From: Mayamaea pseudoterrestris
Taxonomy: Eukaryota
Direction of reading: 5' to 3'
DNA: 64,000 nt
Assembly: GCA_027923505.1 (NCBI GenBank)
Contig: BROI01000004.1
Coordinates: 806,001 to 870,000 of the forward strand
The first letter of the stretch is position 1, and the number at the start of each line of letters is the position of its first letter. The translations under genes and the position numbers were made by a program. The notes beneath the pieces were generated by a model, which saw nothing but the letters and a program-made list of their open reading frames with translations, searched no databases and had not been told where the DNA came from. Positions 20,172 to 40,300 of the stretch are shown here, one piece after another.

Positions 20172-22637
20172 ATGTCAGCGACAATGGAGCAAACGTCGCC
20201 AAATACATCGCCAGCCTCTCCCATTTCAGACAGTGGCGAAAGCTGTCATTCCAATGATCGCCGGAACAGTTGGAAGGAGAAGCTTTCTCCGTACATGCCC
20301 AAACGCAATTCATCACGTTGCGTCCAACTCGAGCTACAAAATAGCATTGACGATGACTTGCTCGTTGTGTTGAAGCAAGTCGTTCGCACCATTTTGGAGC
20401 AAGAGCCGAAAGTCATTACGAAAAGTTGCCTCTATCGAGTCTTGCGCAAGTTTGCCCGCAGTCAAGTTGACTTGAAGTCACTTGAGACGCAACTGATCAA
20501 AACGACGCGAGAGCTGCATGAATGTCAAATGCAGCTTGCCGTCAAGGAGGAAAATGCTTCTGAAACAAACAACAATGGTACTGTCGCTGCAACAAACCCG
20601 TCGGCGCAGCAGCGTACGACGCAACAGCAAATCATCAAGCTCCAGCAAATGATTATTGATTTGGAAGAGGTTCATACCAAGCAGCGACAAAAGTATGAAC
20701 AAGCGCTGCGCCAGTTCCAGCAGAATCACGAATCGACGCGTCAGTCGCTTGATACAACCAGTCGCGAGCGAAATGATATACAATCGCAGCTGGAGCAGGA
20801 GCGCATTGCGACGGCCGTCGGTGAGCAGGTGATTCAAGCGCTCAGAGAAACGTTGCTGGACAAGGATGAGTGCATAAAAGAGCATGAGCGTGATACTGAA
20901 AGGCTGCAAATGCAGTTGACTACAACTATGCAAGCGGTTGCGGAGCGAGACGAAACTATTGAGCTGCTGCAGAAGCAAATCAACGAAATACAAGTACAAC
21001 AAAAGGCAGTAGGAGCGACTGACGAGGCACAAGCTACTGGTAAAACAGTTGAAATGGACGATACTAGTGCTCATGAGGCAGTAAATACGGGGGATCGTTT
21101 GGAAGTTTCCGTCAAGTCGACTGGTTCTGCTGCAGATATCACCGCCGCCATTCGGGGCGCATCGTTGGAACCCAATGGGTACGAGGTACATTCACACAAC
21201 GGGAAAGAAGGTGGGTTTATGCTATCCCGTATTAACGAACTCGAAAAGCAACGACTAGCGATGATAAAGGTGGCAATGGATACATCCACTACCGAAACCG
21301 CCACTGACATTGATGAACGAATTATTCTCCAAAGAGACAGCGACGATTCTGATAAGCCTTGGCGAGTCGATGAATTGAGGAAACGAAGAGACACTCAAGA
21401 GAAGGACGTGAAGCAGCAGCTTTTCCGCATAAATCAGAGGACGTCGACATCTGGACAAGCAACGGCTCAATCGCCTGATCGAGATTCTGGGTGGAGGTCG
21501 GCCCCAAATTCTCCTTCGGACCGTAATGTTGCAACATTGAAGACGCATGTTGCGGTCCAGGAAGCTCTGGTAAAGGAACGGGATGCCACTATTGAAGAGT
21601 TGCAAGCTCAAGTACAAGATCTTTCGTCTAAACTGGACGCGACAGTGGCCTTGACTGCTTCTCTGGTTATGCGCGACCGTGCACGAACAATTAAGAATGA
21701 CGGTGGACAGGGAAAGCAAGTTGATGCTAAGCAAGTTGACGAGCTACAACGAAGCCTCAAGCACAGCGAAGCAAAGGTTGCAAAGTTAAAGCAAGAATTG
21801 ACTGTAACCAAGCGGAATGCAACTAACTCGGAACAAAAGATCAAACTGCTCGAAACTTTCATTATGGAAGACCTACATGATGAGGTAGTCCTCGGAGAAG
21901 TAACAGAATCACAGAAACGTAGAAAAACTATCGAATCATTTGAAGAAAGCACGCGAAGTATTCTCGATGAGTCGCAAATGCTTGCAATAGAAAAGGCGTC
22001 GCTTAAAACAGAGCTCTACGATTTGAAAAGCCAACTCAGGATTGCACAAGCAATGGTGTCGGACTTGGAAAAAGATCGCAAATCGTTAAGATCCAGAATT
22101 GCGCACATTGATCCACTGGGTGAAATCACAGAAAAGGCAGACATTGAAGCTAAAGTTTATGAGCTAGCGCTTGAGCTTGCCGACGTGACGGTTGAGAGGG
22201 ATGCACTAGCAGAAGAGCTACATATGGGAAAGCAACGCATCATACGACTCGAAGGTGAATGTGCAATAACTAGACGCAATTCATACAAATTAAAGGGATT
22301 GCCCATCATGGCTGACTTGTCAGAAGCAGAAGAAAGTTTTGGTACTATCTCCGAGAGAAGTACCCGCCTTTCCTTCTTTAGCGGGCAGGAAGAACAAGTG
22401 TCACCAGGCTCGCCACCTTGCTCCAGAGATTCAGCAATCCGGGAGGGCATCTGCTCACTCTTTGCGCCTGAACCTTCCTCTGCAAAGCGCCAGTCACCGG
22501 ATGTGAAGCAACTGGAACAACGGATTGCTGATTTGGAAGCAGCGAATAACGCGTATGCAGCATCAGTTGACTCTCTCAAGAGTCAGCTTAATGAATGCAT
22601 GTTCGATCATTCTGGTCACACTACCGGTAGTAGTTAG
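20172..22637 (+). CDS. Long coiled-coil protein (821 aa)
   Basis: Uninterrupted ORF with Q/E/L/K-rich heptad segments. Confidence 0.85.
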   Translation: MSATMEQTSPNTSPASPISDSGESCHSNDRRNSWKEKLSPYMPKRNSSRCVQLELQNSIDDDLLVVLKQVVRTILEQEPKVITKSCLYRVLRKFARSQVDLKSLETQLIKTTRELHECQMQLAVKEENASETNNNGTVAATNPSAQQRTTQQQIIKLQQMIIDLEEVHTKQRQKYEQALRQFQQNHESTRQSLDTTSRERNDIQSQLEQERIATAVGEQVIQALRETLLDKDECIKEHERDTERLQMQLTTTMQAVAERDETIELLQKQINEIQVQQKAVGATDEAQATGKTVEMDDTSAHEAVNTGDRLEVSVKSTGSAADITAAIRGASLEPNGYEVHSHNGKEGGFMLSRINELEKQRLAMIKVAMDTSTTETATDIDERIILQRDSDDSDKPWRVDELRKRRDTQEKDVKQQLFRINQRTSTSGQATAQSPDRDSGWRSAPNSPSDRNVATLKTHVAVQEALVKERDATIEELQAQVQDLSSKLDATVALTASLVMRDRARTIKNDGGQGKQVDAKQVDELQRSLKHSEAKVAKLKQELTVTKRNATNSEQKIKLLETFIMEDLHDEVVLGEVTESQKRRKTIESFEESTRSILDESQMLAIEKASLKTELYDLKSQLRIAQAMVSDLEKDRKSLRSRIAHIDPLGEITEKADIEAKVYELALELADVTVERDALAEELHMGKQRIIRLEGECAITRRNSYKLKGLPIMADLSEAEESFGTISERSTRLSFFSGQEEQVSPGSPPCSRDSAIREGICSLFAPEPSSAKRQSPDVKQLEQRIADLEAANNAYAASVDSLKSQLNECMFDHSGHTTGSS

Positions 22638-22654
22638 CAATAAGTAGAATCCAT

Positions 22655-23686
22655 TCATAGTCGCTTTCGTCGCGTTCGTCGCCGTAATACTACCACCCGA
22701 ACGCCGCCGGTACTTTGAACTACTTGACAATCGCTCGGCAGCATTGTCTTTTGTAGAATGGTTGATAAATTTTCCCTTGTCGCTTGAAAAGGCCAGTTTA
22801 GACTCGACGGCTGGACTGTTTCCAAACCTTGCTGTTGTGTTACAGAGAGAAAGCCGTCCACTTCGGCATTCACATTAAAGCCAGTGTGGCCAAGACTCAA
22901 ATAAATGATCACACCATCATCTGATAGCACCGTCTCCATAGATTCTGCGAGTTGTCGCCATGACCCGGGACTATACGTAAGGTCTGCTCCAATAACAATA
23001 TTGGCTCTTCCAGCTAAATCCATGGCATCCATCATGCCCCATTGCAATTGCTGCGTCGTGACCCTGTCGCTCAAATCATTTGCGTTTACGTTTCGTTTCG
23101 CAAGTTCCATTACCAATGAATTGCCATCCGTTGCCAGTACTTGTTGCGCGCCCAAATGTGCGGCTGCCATGCTGACAAGGCCGGTTCCGCAACCAAGCTC
23201 AAGGATAGTCTTATTTTCCAACAGACTGGGCTCATTATCAACCAGTCTCTCCAGCAGTTGTTTTAACAGCAAGGAGCTGTTCCAAATAGCAGTTCCAGTG
23301 GATCCTGCGGCTGCTACTTGTTGCTCTATTCGCAAAGTGACGACGTTTTCTCCTTCCATTTTAGAACGGCCGCTGCTCGGCAGACGAACCGGTATTTCTC
23401 GGATTGGAATGGCCATGCAGATTTGCGAGTATGCTCCGGGTATGGCTTGCTCCATTGACAAGGCACCGTTCCGGCATTGTCGCGAGATCCCCTCCTCCGC
23501 AGAGTCTGCTACGGGTAGTTCCGATGCTAGTGCAGCCATTGGTGTCGGAGAGCTTGGGAGGAGAATAGCTGTGGAAGCTGCTGATTGACATACAAAACGG
23601 CGCCGTCCAAGCAAGAGATTTTCCAGCGAAAGGCTTGTCACTCTGACTGTGAGTGAAACGATAGACAGGAACTTCCAGAGCATCCT
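22655..23686 (-). CDS. SAM-dependent lysine methyltransferase (METTL21/Methyltransf_16 family), probably plastid-targeted
   Basis: TGTAIWNSS, ILELGCGTGLVS, VLATDG, LQWG, IIGADLTY-type motif; N-terminal signal and RRR segment; start uncertain. Confidence 0.88.
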   Translation of the reverse strand, partial: RMLWKFLSIVSLTVRVTSLSLENLLLGRRRFVCQSAASTAILLPSSPTPMAALASELPVADSAEEGISRQCRNGALSMEQAIPGAYSQICMAIPIREIPVRLPSSGRSKMEGENVVTLRIEQQVAAAGSTGTAIWNSSLLLKQLLERLVDNEPSLLENKTILELGCGTGLVSMAAAHLGAQQVLATDGNSLVMELAKRNVNANDLSDRVTTQQLQWGMMDAMDLAGRANIVIGADLTYSPGSWRQLAESMETVLSDDGVIIYLSLGHTGFNVNAEVDGFLSVTQQQGLETVQPSSLNWPFQATRENLSTILQKTMLPSDCQVVQSTGGVRVVVLRRRTRRKRL

Positions 23687-24062
23687 CATACAGCGCCGAT
23701 GCAAATCAGGCGCTTGACGAGGCTTCCCTGATGGCCTTTCGCTGCAATGTGCGTGGCTCGTAAATGCACAAAAGTATCAAAGTAATTAGCCTATAGCAAG
23801 ATTTCACCTTAGACTATCACGTCCACTGCCAAGTTGACAATCAATAGATAGATTGAATTGCAGCATGGATGGTGTGATGTATCGTCGCCACATGCTTGTG
23901 CGATCAGATCGCGCGCTGCGCCATTCTGCCGTTGATCGCATCGTGTCGCACCGGTCCATTCAAACCCGCTACGACGAATTTTAAACCGTTCTCTCCCGAG
24001 GAAACGACGAAACGATCGATCGCTCAATCAACAGTCACTTTTTCAAAAAACAAAACAAAACG

Positions 24063-25020
24063 ATGTTCAACTTTGGAAAGGTTTCAGCGGTTCCTTCTTG
24101 TATCTACACGTGTAGGGATACAATGAAGATGGGGTTACTACACAAACACCAGAGTGATTCGTGCCGCGGCGGCGGCAGTCTTGCGAGCCTCGGCGGAGGT
24201 TACCATGGCGTCTCCTTGGGATTGGGAATTTCGGCGATGCAGCAGCGGATGGAGTTTAGAGAGGAGGAAGTTCAAGCGAGTGGGGTCGACGAATTGCAGG
24301 ACTTCAGAGCGTTGTTGCGTATGCGTATGAGTGTCGTGGAGGATGCTAACCCTTTGTCGTTCGAGTCCGAGGAGCAAGTCGAGAGTCATCCAACGAGCTT
24401 GCTCGCCAACGACTCGAGGCATGCTTCCCGAGATGACAGCGAGAGTGAGAGTTTGAGTGAGAGTCATGTCTCTGATGAGACTGTCTCGAGCTGCATCGTC
24501 CCGCATCAAGCTTTGATTGGTTCCCTCGCTAGTTCAGTCGTCTGCAAAGGCGTCATACACTACGATTCGATCAGCTTGTTGCAGCGAGGCTTGTTTGCTG
24601 CCTTCCAGCGTTCTACAAGCAGTTCCAGCGCAAGTTCCATCGTCGGTCAAGTTGTAAGCAATTACAACTTGATCAATATTCCAGTGCAAGTATGGTTTGC
24701 GTCGAGTCCGAGTTCTACGGCGCGTCAGTTTCACTTTTCGACGCATCTGCCTACTAGTCCTCGTCGGCACGTTCCAGCCATTACCTGCAGCGCGAGTCCT
24801 ACCACCTATCAAGACGTCATCCAATACAGCTCGACTAAACTACCAAGTCAAAAGGAGTTTGCTATTCTTCATGTTTCTACATTTACGTCCTGCGCGACTT
24901 TTGTTGTCGTCACGGCCTGGCCATGGCGTTTCCTTGTCGGTCAAGCAACCATGATCTTCTTCCTGGCGCGAAGGAAGAAGCCGCCCGACAAGTCATACGC
25001 CATGGTCTGGCCGAAATCGA
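24063..25020 (+). other. Possible first exon / ORF of an accessory locus (the ORF track extends it to 25613 through intron-like repeats)
   Basis: ATG follows an A-rich CAAAACAAAAC context; S/E-rich low-complexity translation; no domain recognised. Confidence 0.3.
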
Positions 25021-27822
25021 GTAAGTATCAACAGCGAGCGACTGTTTGCGCAATTTGTCCACGGACGCACTCCACCCCGCCTTTTCTTTCTTTTCACAGA
25101 TTACTGCTGCTCCAGTTGCCTCGGTGGCAATGTTTCCGGCTGCGACTCCCGTGTTTAACGTTGATCCGGACTAGTGTAAGTACCAAGAGCGAGCGAATAT
25201 TTGTCCAATCAGGCCACGGAAGCGCCCCACCCCCGCCTTGTCTTCCTTTTCGCAGAATAATGACATTATTACTTATTGGATGTGTTCCGGCTGCACCCTT
25301 TGTTTCGACAATGGTACGGGATCGAGTAAGTACCAAGAGCAAGCGAATATCTGTCCAATCAGGCCACGGAAGCGCCCCACCCCCGCCTTTTCTTCCTTTT
25401 CGCAGTGTACTGCTGACATTGCTTCAGCGGATGTGTTACCGGCTGCAACTTCATTGTTTTAACATTATGCCGGACCGAGTAAGTACCAAGAGCGAGCATA
25501 TATTTGTCTTATTGGTCCACGGAAGCGCCCCACCCGCATTTTCTTTCTTTTTCACAGAATACTGCTGCTTCTGCTGCGTTTGGAATCGAGTAACTATCAG
25601 GGAGGGCAACTAAGTCGTGCAAATTGACCACAATAGCGCCCCACCCCGCCTTCTTTCCCTTGCACAGACTGCTGTTACTGTTAGTACGGCGCTTCGGCAT
25701 CGCGTTGACCCCGAGTAAGTACCAAAAGCGAGCGAATGTTCGTGAAAAGTGTCCACAGAAGTACCCCACCCTTTTTTCTTTCTTGCTCCAGACGGCTGCT
25801 GCTGCGGCGGGGGCGGCTTCTTGCAATTCTTACGCTTTGTAACCCTTACCTAGTACGTTTAAAGCGACAGAACGTGTGCGATTTGTTTGCAGAAGCGCCC
25901 CACCCTGCCTTTTTCTTTCTTTCTTTCTATAGGCGACGACTTTCGGGCTCTCTGTAAGTTCTTCAAATGGCTATGAGTGTCTTTTTGTGACTCGCTACAT
26001 GACGCTGCGTTCTCTTCCTTTCAGATGTGGGTTTGTGACGTGATTTATTAGAAAGTTGCTTCTCATAGGCGACAACATCTGGCTTGTGTAAGTTCTGCAA
26101 ATTGTTGCGAGTGTCTCTTGGTGACTCGCTACATGACACTGCGTTCTCTTCCTTTCAGATGGGTTTGCGACGTGATTTATTAGAAAGTTGCTTCCCGTAG
26201 GCGACGACATCTGGCTTGTGTAAGTTCTGCAAATTGCTGCGAGTGTCTCTTGGTGACTCGCTACATGACACTGCGTCCTCTTCCTTCCAGATGGGTTTGC
26301 GACGTGATTTATTAGAAAAGTGCTTCCCAAAGGCGACGACTTCTGGCTTGAGTAAGTTCTGCAAATTGCTGCGAGTGTCTCTGTGTGTTACTGACTCGCT
26401 ACGTGACACAGCGTTCTCTTTCTTTCAGATGGGTACAACGCGTCGTGATTCGTTAGAGATTGGACAAAGGTACGTCCTATACAGCTCTTTAAGTGTCTTG
26501 TAGCGACTTGGTCCCTCATACACAGTCTTCTTCTTTCCAGGCGACTGGCGCTGTGATCTCGCTTGATCCCAGGCGACGAATAAGTACGTTTTGCATATAG
26601 CTGGGGAGTGTTCATTGAGGCCCCTACCATTACTCTGCCTTTTCTTTAATCCTTCCAGGCGATGAGCGGCAAGTACATTTTTGCATGGCGTTAAAGTGTG
26701 TCTCGTTGCTTCCTACCACGCAATGCTTCCTTTCGATAAAGGCGGAACGAGCGGTGATTACTCCTTTGGTTAAGACTGGGTACGTTCTGCATGCTGGAAA
26801 ATGTCTTGTTGTGACCCCTACCATTACGCTGCCTTTCTTCTTTCCTTCCAGGCATCGCTTATGCTTCTTTAAGTTCTACATGTTAATTAATTGCCTCCTC
26901 TTTCTCCCTGGTGCACGTAAGTTCTGCATTGTGCTGGAGGATTGCTCGTGGTGACCCCTACCATTACACTGTCTTCTCTTCCTTTCAGGCGCCATTTCTG
27001 TTTCTGTGAGTTCTGCTTATAGCTGGAGATTGATTGCCTCCTCTTTCTCCATTTTGCACGAAACCATTAGTAAGTTCTGCATTGTGCTGGAGAATTGCTC
27101 GTGGTGACCCCTACCATTACACTGTCTTCTCTTCCTTTCAGGAGTCATTTCTGTTTCTGTGAGTTCTGCTTATAGCTGAAATTGTATCGATGCGTCCTCT
27201 ACCATAACACTGCATTATCTTCCTTTCAGGTTGCACGCTGAAGTTGGCAAGTTCTGCAATTTGCTAGAGATAATCTCACCGTGATCTTTCCAAGCTCAGC
27301 ATGCTTCAGTAAGTTCGATATAATGCTGGAGTGTGTCTCGTTGCGACCCCTACCATTACATTGTCTTCTCTTTCTTCCACGCTACTCGCGCGGGCTCCAG
27401 TAGCCTACACTCTTCCTTCCAGGCCGCAACCGAGCTTTGGTAAGTGCTGCATACTGCTGGAAAGTTGCCCCGTGAACTCCTACCGTTACACCGCGTTCTC
27501 TTGTTTCCTGAACAGACGATGACATCAATGCTGAGCTTTGGCACCATGGTAAGCCTTTCGGAGTCGAGCCCTTTTGCCTTGTCGCGTCTACTACCGGTAG
27601 GCGGTCCGTAAGCGTATCATTCGAGTGACTGCGGTGTTGCGATTCGCTACCTGATTCTGCCTTCGTTACATTTCTGACTTTAAATTCATTCCTGCATCGT
27701 TTCTCTTCAAAGTGCAACAAATTATCATGGCTTTGCCAAGCGGTGGCGATTTGGTACGTTTGAGGTATGTGTGCCCGAATTTGACGTCCTACATGACCTT
27801 CCGTTTTTGTTCTTTTCTGCAG
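25021..27822 (+). repeat. Array of ~20 homologous intron-like units (69-80 bp, GT...AG) in two sequence families
   Basis: Family A (7 units, 25021-25932): GTAAGTACCAAGAGCGAGCG...GCGCCCCACCCCGCC-pyrimidines-CAG. Family B (13 complete units, 25954-27822): GTAAGTTCTGCA...GTGAC(C/T)C(C/G)CTAC...TTCTCTTCCTTTCAG. Confidence 0.85.
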
Positions 27823-27960
27823 GTACTATATGACTTTCCCAGCGGGACGCCGCGTACTCAACAATCATCCCACAAAACCATCGTACTCGTTCACCATCCT
27901 TCCTTCCTCATCGTTCCTTCCACTTCCATGGGTTCTGTCCCACTCTTCCACATCCACACT

Positions 27961-28397
27961 GGCGGCTGCTGGGCAGCAATGAGGCGGCTGCTGGGCAGCA
28001 TTGAGGCGGCTGCTGGGCAGCAATGAGGCGGCTGCTGGGCAGCAATGAGGCGGCTCACTGGGTGAGCAATGAGGCGGCTGCTGGGCAGCAATGAGGCGGC
28101 TGCTGGGCAGCATTGAGGCGGCTCACTGGGTGAGCATGAGGCGGCTGCTGGGCAGCAATGAGGCGGCTCACTGGGTGAGCAATGAGGCGGCTGCTGGGCA
28201 GCAATGAGGCGGCTCACTGGGTGAGCAATGAGGCGGCTGCTGGGCAGCATCGAGGCGGCTCACTGGGTGAGCATGAGGCGGCTGCTGGGCAGCATTGAGG
28301 CGGCTCACTGGGTGAGCATGAGGCGGCTGCTGGGCAGCAATGAGGCGGCTCACTGGGTGAGCACTTAAAAAATGGCGGCTCCGATCACGGATCGAGC
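27961..28397. repeat. Array of 18 GC-rich 22-24-bp hairpin units plus one diverged terminal unit
   Basis: GAGGCG-GCTGC-TGG-GCAGC-AAT (11 copies) and GAGGCG-GCTCAC-TGG-GTGAGC-(A)AT (7 copies). Confidence 0.95.
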
Positions 28398-28604
28398 GGA
28401 AACTGGGCGTGACAAGTGAATGTTGGCAGGTGTCTCACAGCTGGGAGGCGTCAGGACGGTTTTGCGTGCAGTTACATAATTAGCTACGAAAGTGGCTCCC
28501 GGACCTGTCGCCTCCAACTCAAGGCTGTGAGACTAGCGCTCATGATTAACAATCATGAGACCCCTTCATGGCACTCCTCGCTGAACCCACGTTTTCCCCT
28601 GGCG

Positions 28605-28823
28605 AAGATAGACCACCTTGACGCGGTGCTGGGGCTTTCCCACTAAGAGTCTATCACAAAACAAACTTTGGATACGGGTCGTCAACTTTTGTTGATTGTT
28701 GACATCGACCGTCCAAGTCCTGCCGACTGGAAATTACCAAAGATAGACCACCTTGGCGCGGTGCTGGGGCTTTCCCACTAAGAGTCTATCACAAAACAAA
28801 CTTCGGATACGGGTCGTCAACTT
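28605..28823. repeat. 84-bp direct repeat (28605-28688 and 28740-28823), 2 mismatches
   Basis: AAGATAGACCACCTTG(A/G)CGCGGTGCTGGGGCTTTCCCACTAAGAGTCTATCACAAAACAAACTT(T/C)GGATACGGGTCGTCAACTT occurs twice. Confidence 0.95.
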
Positions 28824-31559
28824 CGGCCGCTGATCGTTGCATCAACCGTTTCGACCATGCTCTTAATTAAAGTCGAACGTCGGGCAAAAGTACCAATTGG
28901 CCTGGATCATGCAATCGCCTCTCCTGTCCATCCATCGTGCGGGTGCGCGATTGTTCAATCGCCTCTTCTGCCCAGTCCCATCGCACCCGGCAAAAAACGA
29001 CAGCTCCACTGTTTCTATGTTCTTTCCGCCTTTCTGCCATATCCATCGTTTGACGTCGTCATGGAATGAAGCGTCCATTGTCCCATACTAAGACTAAATC
29101 CCTCTCTGTCAAGTCGTCAATCGGCCCGTAATCCCAATCGTCCAAATTATTAATATTCCTCTCCTTCGGGTGTGTTGCCGCGTCGTTTTGTGGTGTGTCG
29201 GGCGCGCGGGTCAACATCTTTTATCGGCAAAATCTAATATTTATCCTCTTCTTTTTCGATAATCTGCTTTCTCCGACGTCTCTTTCCTGATTGGTTTATC
29301 GGCGTCGTACCATGTTCTTTTTGCAAGTGTCGAGAATGAGGTCATGTCTAAGACTAAATCATCTTTTCAATCGGCCCGTAATAATCTATTCGGCGGTTTG
29401 GGCGGTTGGGTGAAATCGCTCATTATTCATCGTCTCTCTTTTTCGATAACTCTGCTTTCTTTTTGGGTCGATTTTAACACGATTTTCTTGACTAAAATCG
29501 TTATTTTGCAATTTCTGCGGTACATCTGTCCGTTGGCACGGGCTTGACATAAAAAATGACCTGGAGACGACGACTACTTGTAGTTCGTACGTTCGAACTT
29601 TGTCTTTAGAGGGCTGTCGCTGGGTAACCAATACCCCCGACAGTGGTTGCTGTGTTATGTTATCAATATCCACGACAATGGTTACTTCCCTCCTAGGCCC
29701 TGATAATGGTACCCTACGCCCGGCTGCTCCCATGACCAAGAGAAAGACATTCATTTAGTATTTGTGCAAAGTTTCAATATTTGTCGCGTAGCGATAGAGT
29801 CGGGCAATGCGACAATCTTGGAACGCTCCTCGATCGGCAATAGTTCGGCAACCTCCAATTCGGGATAAGGTGCCCTTCACTTGAAGCATTAAGAGCAGAT
29901 CATTGGCCTCCATCGCAATCTGGATTCCAAACAAAGGTTTCAATGACTGGAGGCACGACTGGAGGCAGTCGAAGTTGCAGCAGGCGGCACAGCAGGTAGG
30001 AAGGCTTGCACGTGGTTTCGGTCTTGGCTGGTAGCATTTGCATGACGTGGGTTCGGAAAAGTCTGCGCGCATGTAAGCAACTGGGCTTCATCAGCAATAA
30101 ATCAAAATTTTCGCTGCAGCACTGAGAAAGCACGGGCATGCAGCCTCTCTCAGAAGCATTGGCCTGAGTGTGGCCTGAGATGTTGCCAGGGTATCGATTG
30201 GCCTGAGTGTGGCCAGGGTCTGGTACATTCATGCGATGAGATGTAGAGAGTTGTCACATTTATTCTTGATTTAGGTTTTTGCGCACGACTGGATCATTCA
30301 ATTTCCGTGCATGTGTTTTTGACTGCCAGAGCAACTCCTGCATTTCAACATAGAACAAACTCATATGATCAGATTTTTTAAGTTTGCAACAGAGTGATTG
30401 AGATACCATAAGGTTAAATTCAAGGTTGACATTTATAAAACGAACTGCTATAAGACTCGGCTTTAGAATATGAAATCTGTGAAGAATGCTGGGTGATCTT
30501 ACATTTTGAACTAACTCTATCGCTGTGAACTCTGATGAAGTAAAAATTCATAAGCCTTAGTCTAAAAAACAAATGCTGTTAGCCTCAGGAACATTTAGCC
30601 CGATTTTCTGAAAGCCAGTTCAAAGACAACACGCACGTATATATTGTCGATTTGGTTTGGCGAAAATTAGGAATAGACAACTTTTTACCTCACCTAATCC
30701 TTTTTGACACGATTGCGTTGCACGAAGAATAGCATTGGGGAAATATTTCTTTTTAACGCCTTTGGAAGTTTGGAAGTGATTTTGTCAAATTACAGGGTTG
30801 AAGTTGATGAAGAATTCCCAATTTTTCTTGGAAATGACGAGAAAAAGCTCCGAGGTTAGCCTCTATAGCGCTTGAGAGGACCTCCACAAAAATTTGATAA
30901 ATATCAATGATGGCGGCGTTGAGAGGATTTTCTATAAAGGCCAAGGGTTTACTCAGGCTATTTGCTTAGGAAAAGGAAAGCGCCAGCGCACGAACTTGCT
31001 TTGGTGGCAAAGTATCGCTGCATTGACATAAACACATCTCAAAAGCAGTTAAAATAACATTGGCATCGGGTTGCGAGGCGCAGAAACCCAGGATTTGTAG
31101 AACGCGAGCATGGTCTTGTGAGTCGGTGTCGACTGTTTTCGAGGCAATTTAGTTAGAAGTTTCGAGGAGCTTTGAGTTACCTTTCGCAGAGGCGCCACTG
31201 GCAGCTTTGAGGGTCAAACTGAAGTGACAAAAGAACCAGAAGGCAAACACTATAAAAGATTATTTTCTTCTTTCTAGGCTCTGACGCTTCAATGCTTGTT
31301 GTATGTCCACTCTTCACTAACTGGTCCCACCATCACTGCAGACGGGACGACCCAGGCGCTCGCCTGGTGCAGAGATCCAAAAAAAGTTTGGTAGCGATTG
31401 CGTCGACAGTGGATTAACTTATCCATCGGCAACACGCCAGCGATTTCCAAAGCACAGGTAAAGGGAGGGTAATACCACCACTGCTACCCATGGGGAGTGT
31501 GTGGCACCAGGGCAGGAGTCAATAAAGTCATTGAGTGTCGCAGAACTAGGATAAACGAT

Positions 31560-31720
31560 TTACAACCATATAGCAGGACTGATTGAGCCTCAGCCTTGCA
31601 GAACATTCCAAAATACGGGGGCTGGCTCCTGCCCGTGTGAGAAGGTGGGAGATCATGGCCCAACTCTTGCGCGCCTCTATGAAATTCCTGTGTACTGCTT
31701 GGCAAAACATTACAATGTGA
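31560..31720 (-). mobile_element. Degenerate non-LTR (LINE, RTE-like) retrotransposon fragment, region C-terminal to the RT core
   Basis: Frameshifted translation AVHRNFIEARKSWAMISHLLTRAGASPR / GMFCKAEAQSVLLYGCKS resembles the LINE 'fykavvqsvLLYGsEtW' motif. Confidence 0.6.
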
Positions 31721-32191
31721 CAGCTCAGGTACACAAATGTTAAAACAAATCAAGATGACTTCATGTGCATGGCAGGCATTTCTGCTGCATGCCGCTGCTG
31801 TTTCTGGACAGGACCCTCCCGAATGGTTGGTCAAATTGAAGATTAACCGTTCCTTGTGAACAGTGTAGTACTCGTCGTTGATGGCAGTGAGCATAGCAGT
31901 CTTGAGGGCATTTTTGGTGATAAAAATGAGCTAGAATTTTGTGTTCAGTCAGTTGGTTTGTGAAGCAGTAGCAGGTGGGGCACTTAAATTAGCGCTGGGT
32001 GAATAGGAGGGGCAAATGGAAAGTTTTCATTGGGAAGTGCATCGGGCATGATGAGGCACAGAAAATCGTAGCCGTTGTTGTCAACACGGACAAGAATCTT
32101 GCGTGCGTTGGCGAGGAAAGGAGCAGTGACAGTCAATGGGTCAAGTAAGTGTAAGTTGCGTGAAATTCACTTTAGGAGGGGAGTAGCGAGT

Positions 32192-33430
32192 GTGACACTG
32201 CTGCTGGCCTGGTTTGGAGGCTACGCATTGGACTTGAAAGTGGGATGGACCTGCCTCATTCAGCAGACACATTGGATTTGAGAGTGGATGGACCTCTGAC
32301 TCATTAGGGGGACAATTAGACTTGAAAATGGGATGGACCTCACTCAACTAGCAAGACACATTGGACTTGAAACTGGATGGATGTCACCCTTTAGCGGGTG
32401 AACACATTGGACTTGAAAAGTGAGATGGACCAAACTTGGACTTGAAAGTGGGAAGGACATGACTCATTCAGCGGGACACATTGGACTTGAAAGTGGGATG
32501 GTCCTCATGTGTTAAGCTAAATACATTGGACTTATAAGTGGATGGATCTCACTTATAATCACGACATTATTTGCTATAATATTACTAGCACAGGATTGCT
32601 CACTTATAGCAAGTTTCTTGCTAGACAGATGTTAATTTCTCATATGACATATGGGATTCCAATGGGTTCTGTATTTTGAAGTTGTAAAAAGTGGGTCAAG
32701 TTGACCTGACGGTCTGTGGCACTGCCCCGCTCCTTGCTTGTGAATGTCGCAGAGAGTAGAGATTGTGACACTGCTGCTGGCCTGGTTTGGAGGTTGCTTA
32801 ATGGACATGAAAGTGGATGGTCACTGATTTAGCATAGTGGATGGACCTCACTCATTTAGCAGGAACACATTGGACTTGAAAGTGGATGGGCCTCACTCAA
32901 GTAGTGGGAACACATTGGACCTGAAAGGGATGCAGGAACACATTGGACTTGAAAATGTGGGAACACATTGGACCTGAAAGGGATGCAGAAACACATTGGA
33001 CTTGAAAATGGATGGGCTGCACTCATTTAGCGGGAACACATTGGACCTGAAAGTAGATGGGCGTCAATCATTTAGCTAACCCCATTGGACTTAAAAAGTG
33101 GACGGTAACTGATTTAGCAGGAACACATTGGACTTGAAAGTGGATGGGCGTCACTCATTTAGCTAACCCCATTGGACTTGAAAAGGATGGACCTCACTCA
33201 TTTTGCGGGAACACATTGGACTTGAAAGTGGACGGTCACTGATTTGGCAGGAACACATTGGACTTAAAAGTGGATGGGTGTCACTCATTTAGCTAACCAC
33301 ATTGGATATGAAAGTGGATGAACCTCACTCATTTAGCGGGAACACATCAATTGGCATTATTAGCACAGGATTGCTCACTTACATAGCATTTTTTTGCGAG
33401 ACAGGTTAGTGTCTCATGTGACATATTGAA
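32192..33430. repeat. Degenerate ~46-47-bp minisatellite (CATTGGACTTGAAAGTGGATGGACCTCACTCATTTAGCGGGAACA) inside a two-copy segmental duplication
   Basis: Around 20 copies of the CATTGGACTTGAAAGTGG core. Shared left flank GTGACACTGCTGCTGGCCTGGTTTGGAGG (32192, 32765) and right flank TAGCACAGGATTGCTCACTTA (~32586, ~33361). Confidence 0.9.
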
Positions 33431-34364
33431 TTCTGACAGGTGCTGCTGCCAACACTATAAATTGTGCAATGGCATATCTCTATGACATGCTCCTATCGTT
33501 TGGTTGTACTGCATGATTGAAGCATGTAAAAGCCTTTGCCTCCTCTCATTGCTGATCCTAGCGCGTCTGACACATGTGCTGGTTTGAATGGAATGGAAGT
33601 GGCATGGAGTATGTTTTAGCATTTTCACTTTGCCACAGAACTTTCAGGCTGATTGTTGACCATATTACAAGAAGGTGAGAGCAGGCAGCGCGTAGATCTG
33701 TGTTGCAATACAGGGAACAAGAAAATTCTCTAATGCTTTTTAGCTTGTGGAGCAAGTACGAGTGTCCACTTGTACATACTACCAGCATAATGATTGTGTT
33801 TCGGAGTATGAGCTCAACATAACTTTCCACCATGTATACATAGGATAGCTATGTACTCTACCAACAAGTTACAACACGTATCATATAATATATCACACCA
33901 CTTACGACCCCAGTCAGAGAGATAATGTCATCGTTAATTGACCTTTCAAACAGTTCAGTCCCCGATGTCCGTATCACGTCCTCGCCCGTAGAGCCAGTAC
34001 TTTCATGCATTACGGCCCTATGACCTGTTCACTCTTGGCCTCGCCGCCACGTGACTCAACATGCCAATGATGTTAAGCCCTTGCGTACCTATTATTTAAC
34101 AAATCGCCTGTCAAAAAAGTACTGTTGTTCTCAATGTACGATTTTACTTATCATGATCGATCGAGGGATGACTTGGCCCGCGCTAGACGAGCTCAAAGCA
34201 CACTGACAGGATGGTTTGGCCCTTGTGCATCTCAAACCGCGAAAGCGCGGCGCAGCGGCCATCGTCTCATTCTTTCGAAGCTGGAAACACAACACAAGTG
34301 CTTATTTCTTTGCTTGATCCAACTTGCAATCGAGAGAATATTTCAAGTCTACTGCGATACCATC

Positions 34365-37300
34365 ATGAAACTCATCAACTGTGCGGCTCTGCTGTCGTTG
34401 ATCGGACAAGCCAATGCCAACTGGTACACTCCAAAGGCTGTTCGTGACTTCGACTCCAAGGAAAGTGACGAAAATCTTGTTGCGTCTCAAGTCAGTCATG
34501 AGGCAGCTCTACTTTCGCCGATCAGTCTGACAAGTTGCGACGATCCTGTCGATATCTGCATTATGGACGACCATCCGGAAGGCGCGTTTCGAAAGTGCTG
34601 GCAGGTACTGGCCGGCAACACGATCTTTGCGGGCACCTTTTGCATTACCACCAACGAGTTTGAAGGAAGCGACACGTTCCACATCACGTTCGATACTACC
34701 GGCAGCGGCTGGTTTCTCGACGAGGCGAGTTTGTGGATTGGCGAGCATGGTACGTTTCCTCAAACCATCAAAGGCTTGCCACGCAGCGACCAATTCCCCG
34801 TTGCGACTGGACGTTTGAGCAAGACGCGACCTACCATCTACACGGCCGAGCTTCCTTTCGAGCACACTGGCGCCGTCGACGGACCATCTGGTAAAGTTTC
34901 GGCTTGCTGTGCAGGATCGGCGCCTGCAGTTTACCAAGTGCTTGCTCATTGTAAAGTTTACAACTCCGAATCCAGTCAAGTTGAGTCAATTTGGGGAAAT
35001 GCGACCGAAATCGGAGCGAACTGGGCGATTGGTGCAAATGTTACGCTTGGTTGTGACTGCGTCTCGTCTTCCACCGCTCACCAGGCGAAACGCAAGCGCA
35101 CCATGGCGAATGTACCAAGCCAGGCCATCACCCAATCCGATCGGAAGCTACAAGAAGGTACGAGCGCAGAGTTGTATGACGACGATCATTGGAATGGCTT
35201 ACATCTTCATTTTACTAACCCATCTCGCACAATAGACGCTGCAGACGTTGGTCAAGATCCAAGTACTTTGACGATGGAAGCCGACGACAACGACCTCGTC
35301 GCTGAAGATCAAGAATTTTTCACGGCGGCCAGGAATAACAACCCTAAGCCTACTAAGCCTCCAACTACTAAGCGTCCAACAGTTGCACCACCCCCGACAA
35401 CAGAACCACCGAAGGGCTGCGACACAGCCTATGCCTACTGCATCAACGCACCTCCTCCAAACGATAACAATCTTCCAGGTTGTTTCTCGGATTACGAAAA
35501 CGATTTAAAAAGCAACAGATGGGGCTGGGTTCATCAAGTTCCACCGAGCAGTTCTAATCCCTTTCCTTCCATCCAGTGCATCCTCTACGCTGGAGCAGGA
35601 CAGTGCGACCTTGATAAAGGCAAGAATGCGGGTACTGCCACGATTGAATCGAACAAGATCAAAATTCAGATGGCTGATGGCTATTCTTTAAGCGAGATCC
35701 ACTTTTATCATGGAACAGATGTCTTTCCAGCGGGCCCAAATGGACGTACTAGTTTGGTTGCCCCAGGACAGTACTCCAAGCCCGGATACGTTGCGACGGT
35801 AAATCCAAAGGAGTGGACGCCCAACAACGCCCCAATACAGCCAGGCGAGTATTTCATTTTGCACACCACAGTATGCGAGTCTAGTGCGGCACCAAGCAAG
35901 ACACCAAGCCGCACACCAAGCAAGACCCCAAGCCGCACACCAAGCAAGACCCCAAGCCGCACGCCAAGCAGGACCCCGAGCCGTACGCCAAGCCGCGGAC
36001 CTTCCCGCACGCCAACGCACAATGATCCAAGCCCCTTTCCTACAACTGAGCCCATGTGCCATTGCTGGTGTCCTTGTACTGAAGGTAAGACAAGGTGGGT
36101 GCTTCATACTCTCCAACTACTTTGTCTTTTCTCACCTTTTGTATATCTAATTTTTAAAGTTCCTTCTGGTGCACCAAGCCCATCTCCTAGTGGCGTGCCC
36201 TCACCGTCTCCAAGCGGTGTGCCAAGCCCATCCCCCAGTGGAGTCCCAAGTCCCTCACCTTCTGGTGTACCAAGCCCATCTCCTAGTGGCGTGCCCTCAC
36301 CGTCTCCAAGCGGTGTGCCAAGCCCATCCCCCAGTGGAGTCCCAAGTCCCTCACCTTCTGGTGTACCAAGCCCATCTCCTAGTGGCGTGCCCTCACCGTC
36401 TCCAAGCGGTGTGCCAAGCCCATCCCCCAGTGGAGTCCCAAGTCCCTCACCTTCTGGTGTACCAAGCCCATCTCCTAGTGGCGTGCCCTCACCGTCTCCA
36501 AGCGGTGTGCCAAGCCCATCCCCCAGTGGAGTCCCAAGTCCCTCACCTTCTGGTGTACCAAGCCCATCTCCTAGTGGCGTGCCCTCACCGTCTCCAAGCG
36601 GTGTGCCAAGCCCATCCCCCAGTGGAGTCCCAAGTCCCTCACCTTCTGGTGTACCAAGCCCATCTCCTAGTGGCGTGCCCTCACCGTCTCCAAGCGGTGT
36701 GCCAAGCCCATCCCCCAGTGGAGTCCCAAGTCCCTCACCTTCTGGTGTACCAAGCCCATCTCCTAGTGGCGTGCCCTCACCGTCTCCAAGCGGTGTGCCA
36801 AGCCCATCCCCCAGTGGAGTCCCAAGTCCCTCACCTTCTGGTGTACCAAGCCCATCTCCTAGTGGCGTGCCCTCACCGTCTCCAAGCGGTGTGCCAAGCC
36901 CATCCCCCAGTGGAGTCCCAAGTCCCTCACCTTCTGGTGTACCAAGCCCATCTCCTAGTGGCGTGCCCTCACCGTCTCCAAGCGGTGTGCCAAGCCCATC
37001 CCCCAGTGGAGTCCCAAGTCCCTCACCTTCTGGTGTACCAAGCCCATCTCCTAGTGGCGTGCCCTCACCGTCTCCAAGCGGTGTGCCAAGCCCATCCCCC
37101 AGTGGAGTCCCAAGTCCCTCACCTTCTGGTGTACCAAGCCCATCTCCTAGTGGCGTGCCCTCACCGTCTCCAAGCGGTGTGCCAAGCCCATCCCCCAGTG
37201 GAGTCCCAAGTCCCTCCCCAGCATCTCCAGTGGCGTCCAGCGGGAGCCCTCCCCGTGGCCCTCCTACCTTCTGGTGTACCAAGCCCATCTCCTAGTGGCG

Positions 37301-40300
37301 TGCCCTCACCGTCTCCAAGCGGTGTGCCAAGCCCATCCCCCAGTGGAGTCCCAAGTCCCTCACCTTCTGGTGTACCAAGCCCATCTCCTAGTGGCGTGCC
37401 CTCACCGTCTCCAAGCGGTGTGCCAAGCCCATCCCCCAGTGGAGTCCCAAGTCCCTCACCTTCTGGTGTACCAAGCCCATCTCCTAGTGGCGTGCCCTCA
37501 CCGTCTCCAAGCGGTGTGCCAAGCCCACTCCCCAGTGGAGTCCCAAGTCCCTCACCTTCTGGTGTACCAAGCCCATCTCCTAGTGGCGTGCCCTCACCGT
37601 CTCCAAGCGGTGTGCCAAGCCCATCCCCCAGTGGAGTCCCAAGTCCCTCACCTTCTGGTGTACCAAGCCCATCTCCTAGTGGCGTGCCCTCACCGTCTCC
37701 AAGCGGTGTGCCAAGCCCATCCCCCCAGTGGAGTCCCAAGTCCCTCACCTTCTGGTGTACCAAGCCCATCTCCTAGTGGCGTGCCCTCACCGTCTCCAAG
37801 CGGTGTGCCAAGCCCATCCCCAGTGGAGTCCCAAGTCCCTCACCTTCTGGTGTACCAAGCCCATCTCCTAGTGGCGTGCCCTCACCGTCTCCAAGCGGTG
37901 TGCCAAGCCCATCCCCCAGTGGAGTCCCAAGTCCCTCACCTTCTGGTGTACCAAGCCCATCTCCTAGTGGCGTGCCCTCACCGTCTCCAAGCGGTGTGCC
38001 AAGCCCATCCCCCAGTGGAGTCCCAAGTCCCTCACCTTCTGGTGTACCAAGCCCATCTCCTAGTGGCGTGCCCTCACCGTCTCCAAGCGGTGTGCCAAGC
38101 CCATCCCCCAGTGGAGTCCCAAGTCCCTCACCTTCTGGTGTACCAAGCCCATCTCCTAGTGGCGTGCCCTCACCGTCTCCAAGCGGTGTGCCAAGCCCAT
38201 CCCCCAGTGGAGTCCCAAGTCCCTCACCTTCTGGTGTACCAAGCCCATCTCCTAGTGGCGTGCCCTCACCGTCTCCAAGCGGTGTGCCAAGCCCATCCCC
38301 CAGTGGAGTCCCAAGTCCCTCACCTTCTGGTGTACCAAGCCCATCTCCTAGTGGCGTGCCCTCACCGTCTCCAAGCGGTGTGCCAAGCCCATCCCCCAGT
38401 GGAGTCCCAAGTCCCGCTCCTTCTGGTGTACCAAGCCCATCTCCTAGTGGCGTGCCCTCACCGTCTCCAAGCGGTGTGCCAAGCCCATCCCCCAGTGGAG
38501 TCCCAAGTCCCTCACCTTCTGGTGTACCAAGCCCATCTCCTAGTGGCGTGCCCTCACCGTCTCCAAGCGGTGTGCCAAGCCCATCCCCAGTGGAGTCCCA
38601 AGTCCCTCACCTTCTGGTGTACCAAGCCCATCTCCTAGTGGCGTGCCCTCACCGTCTCCAAGCGGTGTGCCAAGCCCATCCCCCAGTGGAGTCCCAAGTC
38701 CCTCACCTTCTGGTGTACCAAGCCCATCTCCTAGTGGCGTGCCCTCACCGTCTCCAAGCGGTGTGCCAAGCCCATCCCCCAGTGGAGTCCCAAGTCCCTC
38801 ACCTTCTGGTGTACCAAGCCCATCTCCTAGTGGCGTGCCCTCACCATCTCCAAGCGGTGTGCCAAGCCCATCCCCCAGTGGAGTCCCAAGTCCCTCACCT
38901 TCTGGTGTACCAAGCCCATCTCCTAGTGGCGTGCCCTCACCGTCTCCAAGCGGTGTGCCAAGCCCATCCCCCAGTGGAGTCCCAAGTCCCTCACCTTCTG
39001 GTGTACCAAGCCCATCTCCTAGTGGCGTGCCCTCACCGTCTCCAAGCGGTGTGCCAAGCCCATCCCCCAGTGGAGTCCCAAGTCCCTCACCTTCTGGTGT
39101 ACCAAGCCCATCTCCTAGTGGCGTGCCCTCACCGTCTCCAAGCGGTGTGCCAAGCCCATCCCCCAGTGGAGTCCCAAGTCCCTCACCTTCTGGTGTACCA
39201 AGCCCATCTCCTAGTGGCGTGCCCTCACCGTCTCCAAGCGGTGTGCCAAGCCCATCCCCCAGTGGAGTCCCAAGTCCCTCACCTTCTGGTGTACCAAGCC
39301 CATCTCCTAGTGGCGTGCCCTCACCGTCTCCAAGCGGTGTGCCAAGCCCATCCCCCAGTGGAGTCCCAAGTCCCTCACCTTCTGGTGTACCAAGCCCATC
39401 TCCTAGTGGCGTGCCCTCACCGTCTCCAAGCGGTGTGCCAAGCCCATCCCCCAGTGGAGTCCCAAGTCCCTCACCTTCTGGTGTACCAAGCCCATCTCCT
39501 AGTGGCGTGCCCTCACCGTCTCCAAGCGGTGTGCCAAGCCCATCCCCCAGTGGAGTCCCAAGTCCCTCACCTTCTGGTGTACCAAGCCCATCTCCTAGTG
39601 GCGTGCCCTCACCGTCTCCAAGCGGTGTGCCAAGCCCATCCCCCAGTGGAGTCCCAAGTCCCTCACCTTCTGGTGTACCAAGCCCATCTCCTAGTGGCGT
39701 GCCCTCACCGTCTCCAAGCGGTGTGCCAAGCCCATCCCCCAGTGGAGTCCCAAGTCCCTCACCTTCTGGTGTACCAAGCCCATCTCCTAGTGGCGTGCCC
39801 TCACCGTCTCCAAGCGGTGTGCCAAGCCCATCCCCCAGTGGAGTCCCAAGTCCCTCACCTTCTGGTGTACCAAGCCCATCTCCTAGTGGCGTGCCCTCAC
39901 CGTCTCCAAGCGGTGTGCCAAGCCCATCCCCCAGTGGAGTCCCAAGTCCCTCACCTTCTGGTGTACCAAGCCCATCTCCTAGTGGCGTGCCCTCCCAGTG
40001 GAGTCCCTCCCACCCAAGCGGTGTGCCAAGCCCATCCCCCAGTGGAGTCCCAAGTCCCTCACCTTCTGGTGTACCAAGCCCATCTCCTAGTGGCGTGCCC
40101 TCACCGTCTCCCAAGCCTTTCTGGTGTACAAGCCATTGAAGCCCATCCCCCAGTGGAGTCCCAAGTCCCTCACCTTCTGGTGTACCAAGCCCATCTCCTA
40201 GTGGCGTGCCCTCACCGTCTCCAAGCGGTGTGCCAAGCCCATCCCCCAGTGGAGTCCCAAGTCCCTCACCTTCTGGTGTACCAAGCCCATCTCCTAGTGG

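Follow-up and report, generated by a model that had tools for sequence, protein, structure and literature searches.

In the diatom Mayamaea pseudoterrestris, an orphan gene is followed on its 3' side by an array of about 21 related, short, intron-like modules that alternate with divergent spacers. The array occupies positions 25021-27822 (+ strand) of a 64,000-nt stretch of contig BROI01000004.1 (assembly GCA_027923505.1, positions 806,001 to 870,000), which is referred to here as the window. We favour, with moderate confidence, the reading that the modules are serial duplicates of two genuine introns, A (~79 nt) and B (~72 nt), kept alike by their splice signals and by homogenisation limited to the modules. 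The pieces between the copies are most likely exon scraps, and the whole is most likely the non-coding 3' tail of MPSEU_000312100, an orphan gene for a predicted membrane protein. The introns probably do nothing beyond being removed. The present analysis establishes the anatomy of the array, the limitation of homology to the modules, the conservation of the splice signals, and the absence of coding capacity and of small-RNA or transposon hallmarks.

Anatomy of the array and its host gene

The original prediction described 20 intron-like units of near-constant length with GT donors and AG acceptors, accompanied by broken copies, and this description holds. All 20 units open with GT and close with AG on the + strand, and they are 69-80 nt long. 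Their 3' ends read CAG in 18 cases, TAG in one and AAG in one, and their donor hexamers are GTAAGT (12), GTACGT (5), GTGAGT (1), GTAACT (1) and GTACAT (1); in other words, an extended donor (GTAAGT, GTACGT or GTGAGT) is present in 18 of the 20 units and a YAG end in 19. Two units are weak, namely 25590-25667, with the donor GTAACT, and 26673-26741, which reads GTACAT...ATAAAG and has a poor pyrimidine tract. As had been claimed, the units keep their length and motifs while the spacers vary: modules measure 74.4 +/- 3.8 nt and spacers 62 +/- 45 nt (range 14-238 nt), with an exception at 25954-26351 that is discussed below.

Profiles of the two families, searched with nhmmer, recover all seven A units and all 13 B units and yield 21 full and two partial copies in total, every one of them inside 25021-27822. 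The additional full copy, a B member at 27309-27379, has kept GT and lost AG, and the two partial B copies lie at 27006-27032 and 27249-27271. GT is therefore found in 21 of 21 full copies, and AG stands at the homologous position in 20 of 21. These profiles had been suggested as a means of detecting dispersed copies, but in the 64-kb window they give no match outside the array or on the - strand. A strict intron pattern (GT[AG][AC]GT, 60-94 nt, YAG after at least 12 pyrimidines in 15), applied to both strands of the 64 kb, has 19 matches, 17 of which fall on the + strand in the bins 24000-28000, and the rest of the window (~60 kb, both strands) contains two. The same pattern scan finds no intron on the - strand of the array. 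The resemblance of the units to introns is well above what chance would give.

Tandem Repeats Finder detects two periods, one of 150 bp at 25018-25561 (3.6 copies, 76% matches) and one of 132 bp at 25929-26434 (3.8 copies, 89%). In addition, a 153-bp higher-order repeat (family D10) relates 26917-27025 to 27070-27178 at 97%. In a tree of 21 modules, seven belong to family A and 13 to family B, and the unit at 27754 sits unplaced on a long branch. The copies are of very different age, because the terminal branches of this tree span 0.01-0.56 changes per site. The modules and broken copies are the following.

25021-25099 (+): module A1, 79 nt, GTAAGT...CACAG; profile E 9.9e-21
25176-25255 (+): module A2, 80 nt, GTAAGT...CGCAG; profile match
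25326-25405 (+): module A3, 80 nt, GTAAGT...CGCAG; profile match
25479-25557 (+): module A4, 79 nt, GTAAGT...CACAG; profile match
25590-25667 (+): module A5, 78 nt, weakened donor GTAACT, end CACAG; profile match
25715-25791 (+): module A6, 77 nt, GTAAGT...TCCAG; profile match
25853-25932 (+): module A7, 80 nt, GTACGT...TATAG; most diverged of family A in the tree
25954-26024 (+): module B1, 71 nt, GTAAGT...TTCAG; first of the 132-bp whole-unit sub-array
26088-26158 (+): module B2, 71 nt; profile match
26220-26290 (+): module B3, 71 nt; profile match
26352-26428 (+): module B4, 77 nt, with a 6-nt insertion seen in the alignment
26470-26540 (+): module B5, 71 nt, GTACGT...TCCAG, diverged; profile E 7.6e-10
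26584-26658 (+): module B6, 75 nt, GTACGT...TCCAG; profile match
26673-26741 (+): module B7, 69 nt, weak signals GTACAT...ATAAAG; profile E 1.7e-07
26780-26851 (+): module B8, 72 nt, GTACGT...TCCAG; profile match
26917-26988 (+): module B9, 72 nt, within the 153-bp higher-order repeat shared with B10
27006-27032 (+): truncated B copy, 5' part only, GTGAGT..., inside a spacer; profile E 0.043
27070-27141 (+): module B10, 72 nt, within the 153-bp higher-order repeat
27159-27229 (+): module B11, 71 nt, GTGAGT...TTCAG; profile match
27249-27271 (+): partial B copy, donor reads GCAAGT; profile E 0.17
27309-27381 (+): full B copy absent from the original prediction, GTAAGT kept, homologous acceptor now CACG; profile E 8.2e-15
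27440-27515 (+): module B12, 76 nt, GTAAGT...AACAG; profile match
27754-27822 (+): last intron-like unit, 69 nt, GTACGT...TGCAG, long branch, marginal family membership; profile E 1.2e-05

The modules have the features of U2-type GT-AG introns, i.e., terminal GT and AG, an extended donor, a pyrimidine tract, YAG and a suitable length. Their length had also been equated with that of the real introns of the window, and this comparison stands: the other candidate introns of the window, which connect open frames, span 60-90 nt, a range that includes the 69-80 nt of the modules. For this comparison, two candidates were checked by domain continuity. An 83-nt candidate intron at 51853-51935 follows positions 1-390 of 432 of the BT1 profile, and a 72-nt candidate at 12926-12997 follows positions 1-58 of 119 of Cyclin_C; in both cases the domain is cut at the end of the open reading frame (ORF), for BT1 at 51938. 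A YTRAY branch motif occurs in four of the 21 modules, and family B retains TGAC or TTAC about 25 nt from the 3' end. In family A, the best-conserved internal part is a CCCCACCC block, often GCGCCCCACCCC, which lies ~22-28 nt before the 3' end in all seven modules. In A1 the block sits at 25069-25080, where a branch site would be, and it contains no standard branch motif; it may serve as an atypical branch region or bind a protein. The single YTRAY match of family A, in A5, is 44 nt from the 3' end. As the interiors of A and B are nearly unrelated, both have intron anatomy and the strict pattern has only two other matches in the window, at least two real introns are likely to have been the progenitors of the array.

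The array starts as the last intron of MPSEU_000312100, and every other module lies 3' of the stop codon of this gene. The ORF at 24063-25019 is 100% identical to the 316-residue hypothetical protein MPSEU_000312100 of M. pseudoterrestris, whose first exon encodes, near its C-terminus, a hydrophobic stretch read by eye as one predicted membrane span. This identity marks the window as nuclear DNA of the diatom. Only the joining of 25020 to 25116 reproduces the deposited protein exactly, and therefore the last intron of the deposited model must be 25021-25115. The corresponding features are given below.

24129-25020 (+): first coding exon of MPSEU_000312100, 297 aa, identical to the deposited protein
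25021-25115 (+): terminal intron of the deposited model, 95 nt, i.e., module A1 plus 16 nt; acceptor CTCCAG
25116-25174 (+): last coding piece of the deposited model, stop TAG at 25172-25174; all sequence 3' of it is non-coding in the model

The deposited gene model thus already has A1 as an intron, which supports the reading of the modules as duplicated introns. According to the available part of PMC9724779, the gene models of the 30.6-Mb M. pseudoterrestris assembly (11,019 genes) were made with RNA-seq and funannotate, a general statement that is not specific to this intron. The model takes the weaker acceptor CTCCAG at 25115 rather than the strong CACAG at 25099 behind the pyrimidine tract, and the two acceptors give different 19-residue tails. 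The ORF matches no Pfam family, and no relative other than the protein itself was found among 1.84 billion representative proteins or in a search of proteins of 175-559 aa. The identifiers of MPSEU_000312100 and of two neighbouring genes are absent from two supplementary files of PMC9724779.

The host frame is also open without splicing, at 23985-25613 (+), where it continues for 197 codons past the donor at 25020 through A1-A4. The periods of the array (150 and 132 bp) are both divisible by 3, and we take the open frame to be a side effect of the in-frame period. An unspliced coding reading to 25613 was rejected, as all three differences between A2 and A3 alter the residue (by eye) and the frame is kept by the 150-bp period alone. 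This unspliced reading of A1-A4 has no protein match among 1019 candidates (proteins of 108-345 aa).

The array is real DNA and not an assembly artefact, because contigs of the sequencing run X1 are colinear across 22000-27950, which they cover in eight listed pieces. Contigs of the runs X1, X3, X4 and X5 have no joints in 22000-27950; none of the seven runs listed, these four included, is on record as RNA, and contigs cannot show that joints are absent. For X4 (not on record as RNA), contig record 20 (25491-25761) is colinear across the module at 25590-25667 and record 21 (25764-26135) across 25853-25932 and 25954-26024. The same is true of X5 (likewise not on record as RNA), in which record 28 (24917-25153) runs colinear across 25021-25099, record 29 (26408-26603) across 26470-26540, and record 31 (27077-27413) across 27159-27229. 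In both X4 and X5, 12 of the 30 depth bins of 22000-27950 are uncovered. At 24284, the X1 and X3 contigs read A at full depth where the window has G, which is an assembly/read difference or an allele.

Conservation of the modules and their proposed origin

Conservation in the array follows the modules. Mean pairwise identity is 0.73 within family A (21 pairs) and 0.69 within family B (91 pairs), whereas the 30-nt flanks show 0.50-0.52 and shuffled sequence 0.46-0.49. On the strength of this difference between modules and flanks, the array, judged from its sequence, is not an ordinary minisatellite; divergence that is even along the unit, as in a minisatellite, is found in the sub-array 25954-26351 alone. 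Between A and B the identity is 0.57, against a shuffled baseline of 0.49. In the alignment of family B, conservation rises at GT and falls directly after AG, and non-consensus letters make up 26% of module columns and 54% of flank columns (Fisher p 7e-18), although this p-value and those that follow are optimistic, since the cells share ancestry, the units were partly picked for GT/AG and the alignment is anchored on those ends, a caveat that tells against the reading as duplicated introns.

The splice signals are better kept than the module body, and the same is true of the terminal dinucleotides by themselves. The original prediction would be refuted by splice dinucleotides kept no better than the rest of the unit or by spacers as conserved as the units, and neither outcome was obtained, apart from the spacers of the youngest B sub-array. 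In family B, non-consensus cells number 0/28 for GT (p 5e-4 versus body), 1/28 for AG (p 6e-3) and 7/84 for the donor hexamer (p 2e-4), compared with 167/647 in the body. In family A, the donor hexamer departs from the consensus in 2/42 cells and the body in 78/378. It is noteworthy that the changes in the pyrimidine tract (15 columns before YAG) are also biased, with transition:transversion counts of 26:14 against 73:94 in the body of family B (p 0.02) and 17:4 against 38:40 in family A (p 0.012). Decayed signals do occur among the broken copies, i.e., AG changed to CACG at 27381 and the donor GCAAGT at 27249.

The spacers are less conserved than the units save in the youngest part of family B. 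There, at 25954-26351, spacers are as conserved as modules (B2 and B3 share 68/71 positions in the module and 55/61 in the spacers), and this sub-array is evidently a plain whole-unit duplication. The spacers of family A are homologous to one another as well. A2 and A3, in contrast, are identical at 77 of 80 module positions (96%) and at 96 of 153 positions of the flanking spacers (63%), and the identity switches within about 3 nt of both splice junctions. By both identity and the tree, the closest relatives are neighbours, such as A2 and A3, 26088 and 26220, and 26917 and 27070.

Together, these observations point to a history in which two introns at the 3' end of MPSEU_000312100 would have been multiplied by local tandem duplication. 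The duplication may have proceeded by unequal exchange or replication slippage at several scales, giving the 150-, 132- and 153-bp units. Tandem duplication is proposed because neighbours are closest, whole-unit copies exist, and the adjoining DNA is rich in tandem arrays, which this part of the chromosome seems to form readily; in the 20 kb beyond the intron array there are arrays with units of 45 bp and 44 bp, a repeat of 135 bp and a unit of 96 bp in ~80 copies. As the copies lie behind the stop codon, substitutions, indels and CTG slippage could erode their exon scraps freely; the slippage may be invited by the CTG-rich starts of the family A spacers. Transcripts of this region would still be read by intron definition, which would preserve the terminal dinucleotides, the donor hexamer and the pyrimidine tract and set a lower limit on length, and short-tract homogenisation may be confined to those intron pieces that are still similar. 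Transcription through the array, its splicing, and the mechanisms of duplication and homogenisation are what we infer from these patterns.

Several points weigh against this account. Transcription and splicing, its central step, rest on inference. The YTRAY motif is present in just four of 21 modules, and family A has CCCCACCC instead. About 20 introns behind a stop codon would, by the general rule of exon-junction-dependent decay, mark the mRNA for degradation, which would be an odd state for selection to maintain. The borders of A2/A3 identity, so close to both junctions, are not predicted by plain gene conversion. Finally, the host gene has no relatives and may be barely functional.

Alternative accounts of the array

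The foremost alternative, which we consider unlikely but which deserves serious weight, is that the array is a dead relic, in which modules derived from real introns now lie in untranscribed or unspliced neutral DNA and owe their intron-like look to inheritance within a degenerate minisatellite. Such a history would suit a region full of other, non-intron-like tandem arrays, and it would accommodate the orphan state of the host gene, the equal conservation of spacers and modules in the youngest sub-array, and the 3'-ward decay of the array, where AG has been lost from 27309-27381, the donor at 27249 reads GCAAGT and copies are truncated. It would also fit family A, which has no branch motif at the usual distance, its sole match in A5 being 44 nt off. 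However, neutral decay should affect GT, AG and the donor hexamer like the body, and it does not. It also predicts equal freedom of length for modules and spacers, whose standard deviations are 3.8 and 45 nt, respectively. Moreover, GT and AG are still present on modules with terminal branches of 0.2-0.5 changes per site.

A second alternative, improbable in our estimation, is that the introns were copied precisely, with exact GT...AG borders, making the locus an intron nursery. Candidate processes are a locally hopping introner without terminal repeats, or reverse splicing of an excised intron into its own transcript with reverse transcription and recombination as later steps. Precise copying would account for homology that is limited to the stretch from GT to AG, and for the A2/A3 pair, with its 96% identity within the borders and 63% outside. 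In fact, the older B copies are homologous from GT to AG with flanks at the shuffled baseline, and certain spacers are as short as 14-21 nt. There are also possible precedents, as the diatom Thalassiosira oceanica and a Parmales alga are reported to carry introners (available part of PMC12130899), and half of the fungal same-gene intron duplicates come without duplicated exons, for which transpositions within the transcript were suggested (excerpt of PMC3609843). Nevertheless, no copy was found beyond the array in the 64 kb, and thus the dispersed insertion into unrelated genes that characterises introners is not seen within the window. None of the 21 modules has terminal inverted repeats (1-4 of 12 terminal matches) or a target-site duplication of more than 1 nt. 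The closest relative of a module is in every case a neighbour, and several of the young duplicates plainly extend into exon sequence. Sharp borders at high identity occur in one pair only (A2/A3), and the spacers of family A are mutually homologous, as whole-unit duplication predicts. The suggestion in the original prediction that this is a site of introner-like proliferation finds no support within the 64-kb window.

A third view, which strikes us as quite improbable, treats the array as a functional multi-intron tail in which splicing itself is useful, through junction complexes and nonsense-mediated decay, as a shield against RNA silencing, or through intron-derived RNAs. The original prediction had likewise proposed that the introns are the functional units. 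The part of that proposal concerning the unit stands, in that modules and not spacers are conserved, but the four functional options offered with it gained no support. The splice-signal-specific conservation and the constrained module length would both agree with a useful tail, and the layout resembles that of the SNORD115/116 host transcript. On the other hand, one intron suffices for decay, and twenty add nothing obvious. No relative was found in other organisms by metagenome and protein searches: a two-anchor pattern of family B gave nine single matches in metagenome contigs, which are read as chance because neither family profile matches any of the nine at E up to 10. No structured RNA was seen either, as none of the eight modules folded (of 21) is more stable than its shuffles (z -0.86 to +1.28), the array has no Rfam match at E up to 1, and the C box (RTGATGA) occurs in 0/21 modules and CTGA in 3/21. 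The options that depend on such RNAs find no support in these results, namely a transcript releasing intronic RNAs as originally envisaged, an intronic snoRNA host array (no C box, no Rfam match in the array) and a mirtron cluster (no end-to-end hairpin in the eight modules folded). A lone weak Rfam match (E 0.25) lies outside the array at 23654-23752 on the - strand. A silencing or anti-silencing device of a mobile element, also put forward originally, found no backing. The array has no such element near it, in that a scan of 27 large ORFs from the window gave no transposon protein domain and 23000-35000 contains no inverted repeats.

Least of all can we favour an alternative last-exon cassette, a highly improbable arrangement in which the donor at 25020 would be joined to one of many acceptors to give varied short cytoplasmic tails. 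Joining this donor to each of the 21 module acceptors would yield tails of 1-75 residues, several of which are Cys-rich (NYCCSSC..., KYCCFCC..., NCCYC, NGCCCGGGG...), and the deposited model already takes a second acceptor 16 nt downstream of a strong one; yet the tails share no conserved peptide, homologous nucleotides fall in differing frames, several tails have just 1-5 residues, four of 19 spacer lengths divisible by 3 is the chance level, and the introns, rather than the would-be coding exons, are what is conserved. The spacers, as first described, keep no consistent reading frame, and when spliced together they contain 13, 23 and 18 stops in the three frames of 437 codons. A coding role for the spliced spacers was rejected on these counts, all spacers in question lying behind the stop codon. 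A micro-exon gene or a mutually exclusive exon cluster was rejected as well, since the spacers are not symmetric and the introns are more conserved than the would-be exons; the combinatorial micro-exon cassette of the original prediction, taken as coding, fails on the same lack of symmetry and on the richness of the spacers in stops.

Genomic surroundings, comparable systems and significance

The genes around MPSEU_000312100 are ordinary ones and encode a lysine methyltransferase, a cyclin, a cyclophilin, PSF2, an HhH-GPD repair enzyme, a BT1 transporter, a DnaJ protein and a cold-shock-domain protein. The region 25600-34000 is gene-poor, with no ORF of at least 150 codons. Directly 3' of the intron array, a 45-bp tandem array at 27961-28363 comprises 8.9 copies (93% matches) with alternating 22-23-bp subunits, and it is followed by an 84-nt direct repeat that is present twice, at 28605-28688 and 28740-28823 (98% identity, distance 135 nt), and, at 32180-33350, by a degenerate tandem array whose 44-bp unit is overlaid by higher-order periods of 87 and 130 bp. 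Inside the open frames of 34077-45383 (+), a 96-bp unit is repeated ~80 times over the stretch 36162-43936; its copies are 96-99% identical, the GC content is 0.62 and the GC skew -0.30. Read by eye, these units encode Ser/Pro-rich 32-residue repeats, as in a giant surface-protein-like gene, and the gene matches no Pfam family, bar one stray sub-threshold match. Further arrays of 24 bp (43930-44101) and 21 bp (44647-44878) lie beyond them.

Iterated introns and same-gene duplicated introns are already known from spider silk and fungi, and the array is most likely a further form of these. In flagelliform spidroins, the introns are said, after Hayashi and Lewis in 2000, to be more homogeneous than the exons. 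As in the silk genes, many homologous introns stand in series at one locus; in silk genes the exons are repeated too, and unequal exchange or conversion preserves the likeness of the introns, a logic much like the one proposed here for the modules. In the spider flagelliform and Argiope MaSp2 silk genes, as the available part of PMC9779670 has it, iterated introns are homogenised within one gene and are 94-99.7% identical, and the exons are long, coding and in frame. The spacers of the array, unlike these exons, are short (taken here as 14-81 nt), non-coding, out of frame and behind a stop codon, and its introns measure 69-80 nt and range from 50% to 99% identity. Fungal same-gene duplications number at most 16 in a whole species, and about half of them carry duplicated flanking exon (segmental) and half do not (excerpt of PMC3609843). 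Like the array, they comprise near-identical introns in one gene, both with and without exon copies, but the array packs about 21 of them, from two families, into a single tail of 2.8 kb that lies outside the coding sequence.

Introners are known in Micromonas, Aureococcus, fungi and some stramenopiles (PMC12130899 and PMC3609843, each in the part available). They share with the array homologous intron families with exact borders at which homology ends, but they exist in hundreds to thousands of copies dispersed over unrelated genes, many with transposon marks or stable folds. The copies of the array, in contrast, are all local within the 64-kb window, and they lack terminal repeats, target duplications and any stable fold. 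SNORD115/116 at the Prader-Willi locus and hosts of the GAS5 and UHG type carry one box C/D snoRNA per intron, in introns that are far longer. These hosts resemble the array in forming a non-coding extension behind a coding gene, with repeated exon-plus-intron units of which the intron is conserved and the exons drift; the array differs from them in that its modules carry neither the boxes nor an Rfam match and leave no space for a snoRNA. With an ordinary minisatellite, the array shares head-to-tail copies, periods of 132-153 bp, neighbours that are most alike and repeat-rich surroundings, but it diverges unevenly, one intron-like, length-keeping sub-part being conserved and the remainder being at background. 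In literature searches limited to diatom introners, same-gene intron copies, iterated or tandemly repeated introns and nonsense-mediated decay in Phaeodactylum, no title or abstract opening among the results reports such an array in a diatom.

The origin of introns is debated, and documented recent gains are mostly dispersed introner families, with few same-gene duplications. Against this background, the array offers about 21 related short introns of widely differing age in one non-coding tail, in a window where genes otherwise have 0-2 introns. Duplicated introns can therefore be compared here along a natural series, to see what becomes of them, which of their signals persist or decay, and how homogenisation halts at splice sites. 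If unspliced, the array would be merely a curious intron-derived minisatellite. If spliced, it would stand out as an extreme example of introns located 3' of a stop codon, one suited to studying whether diatoms couple such introns to mRNA decay. Should intron-precise copying be true and copies exist in other genes, it would represent a new, very small type of introner in a raphid diatom. The importance of the locus would rise sharply if splicing, dispersed copies or intron-precise copying proved true.

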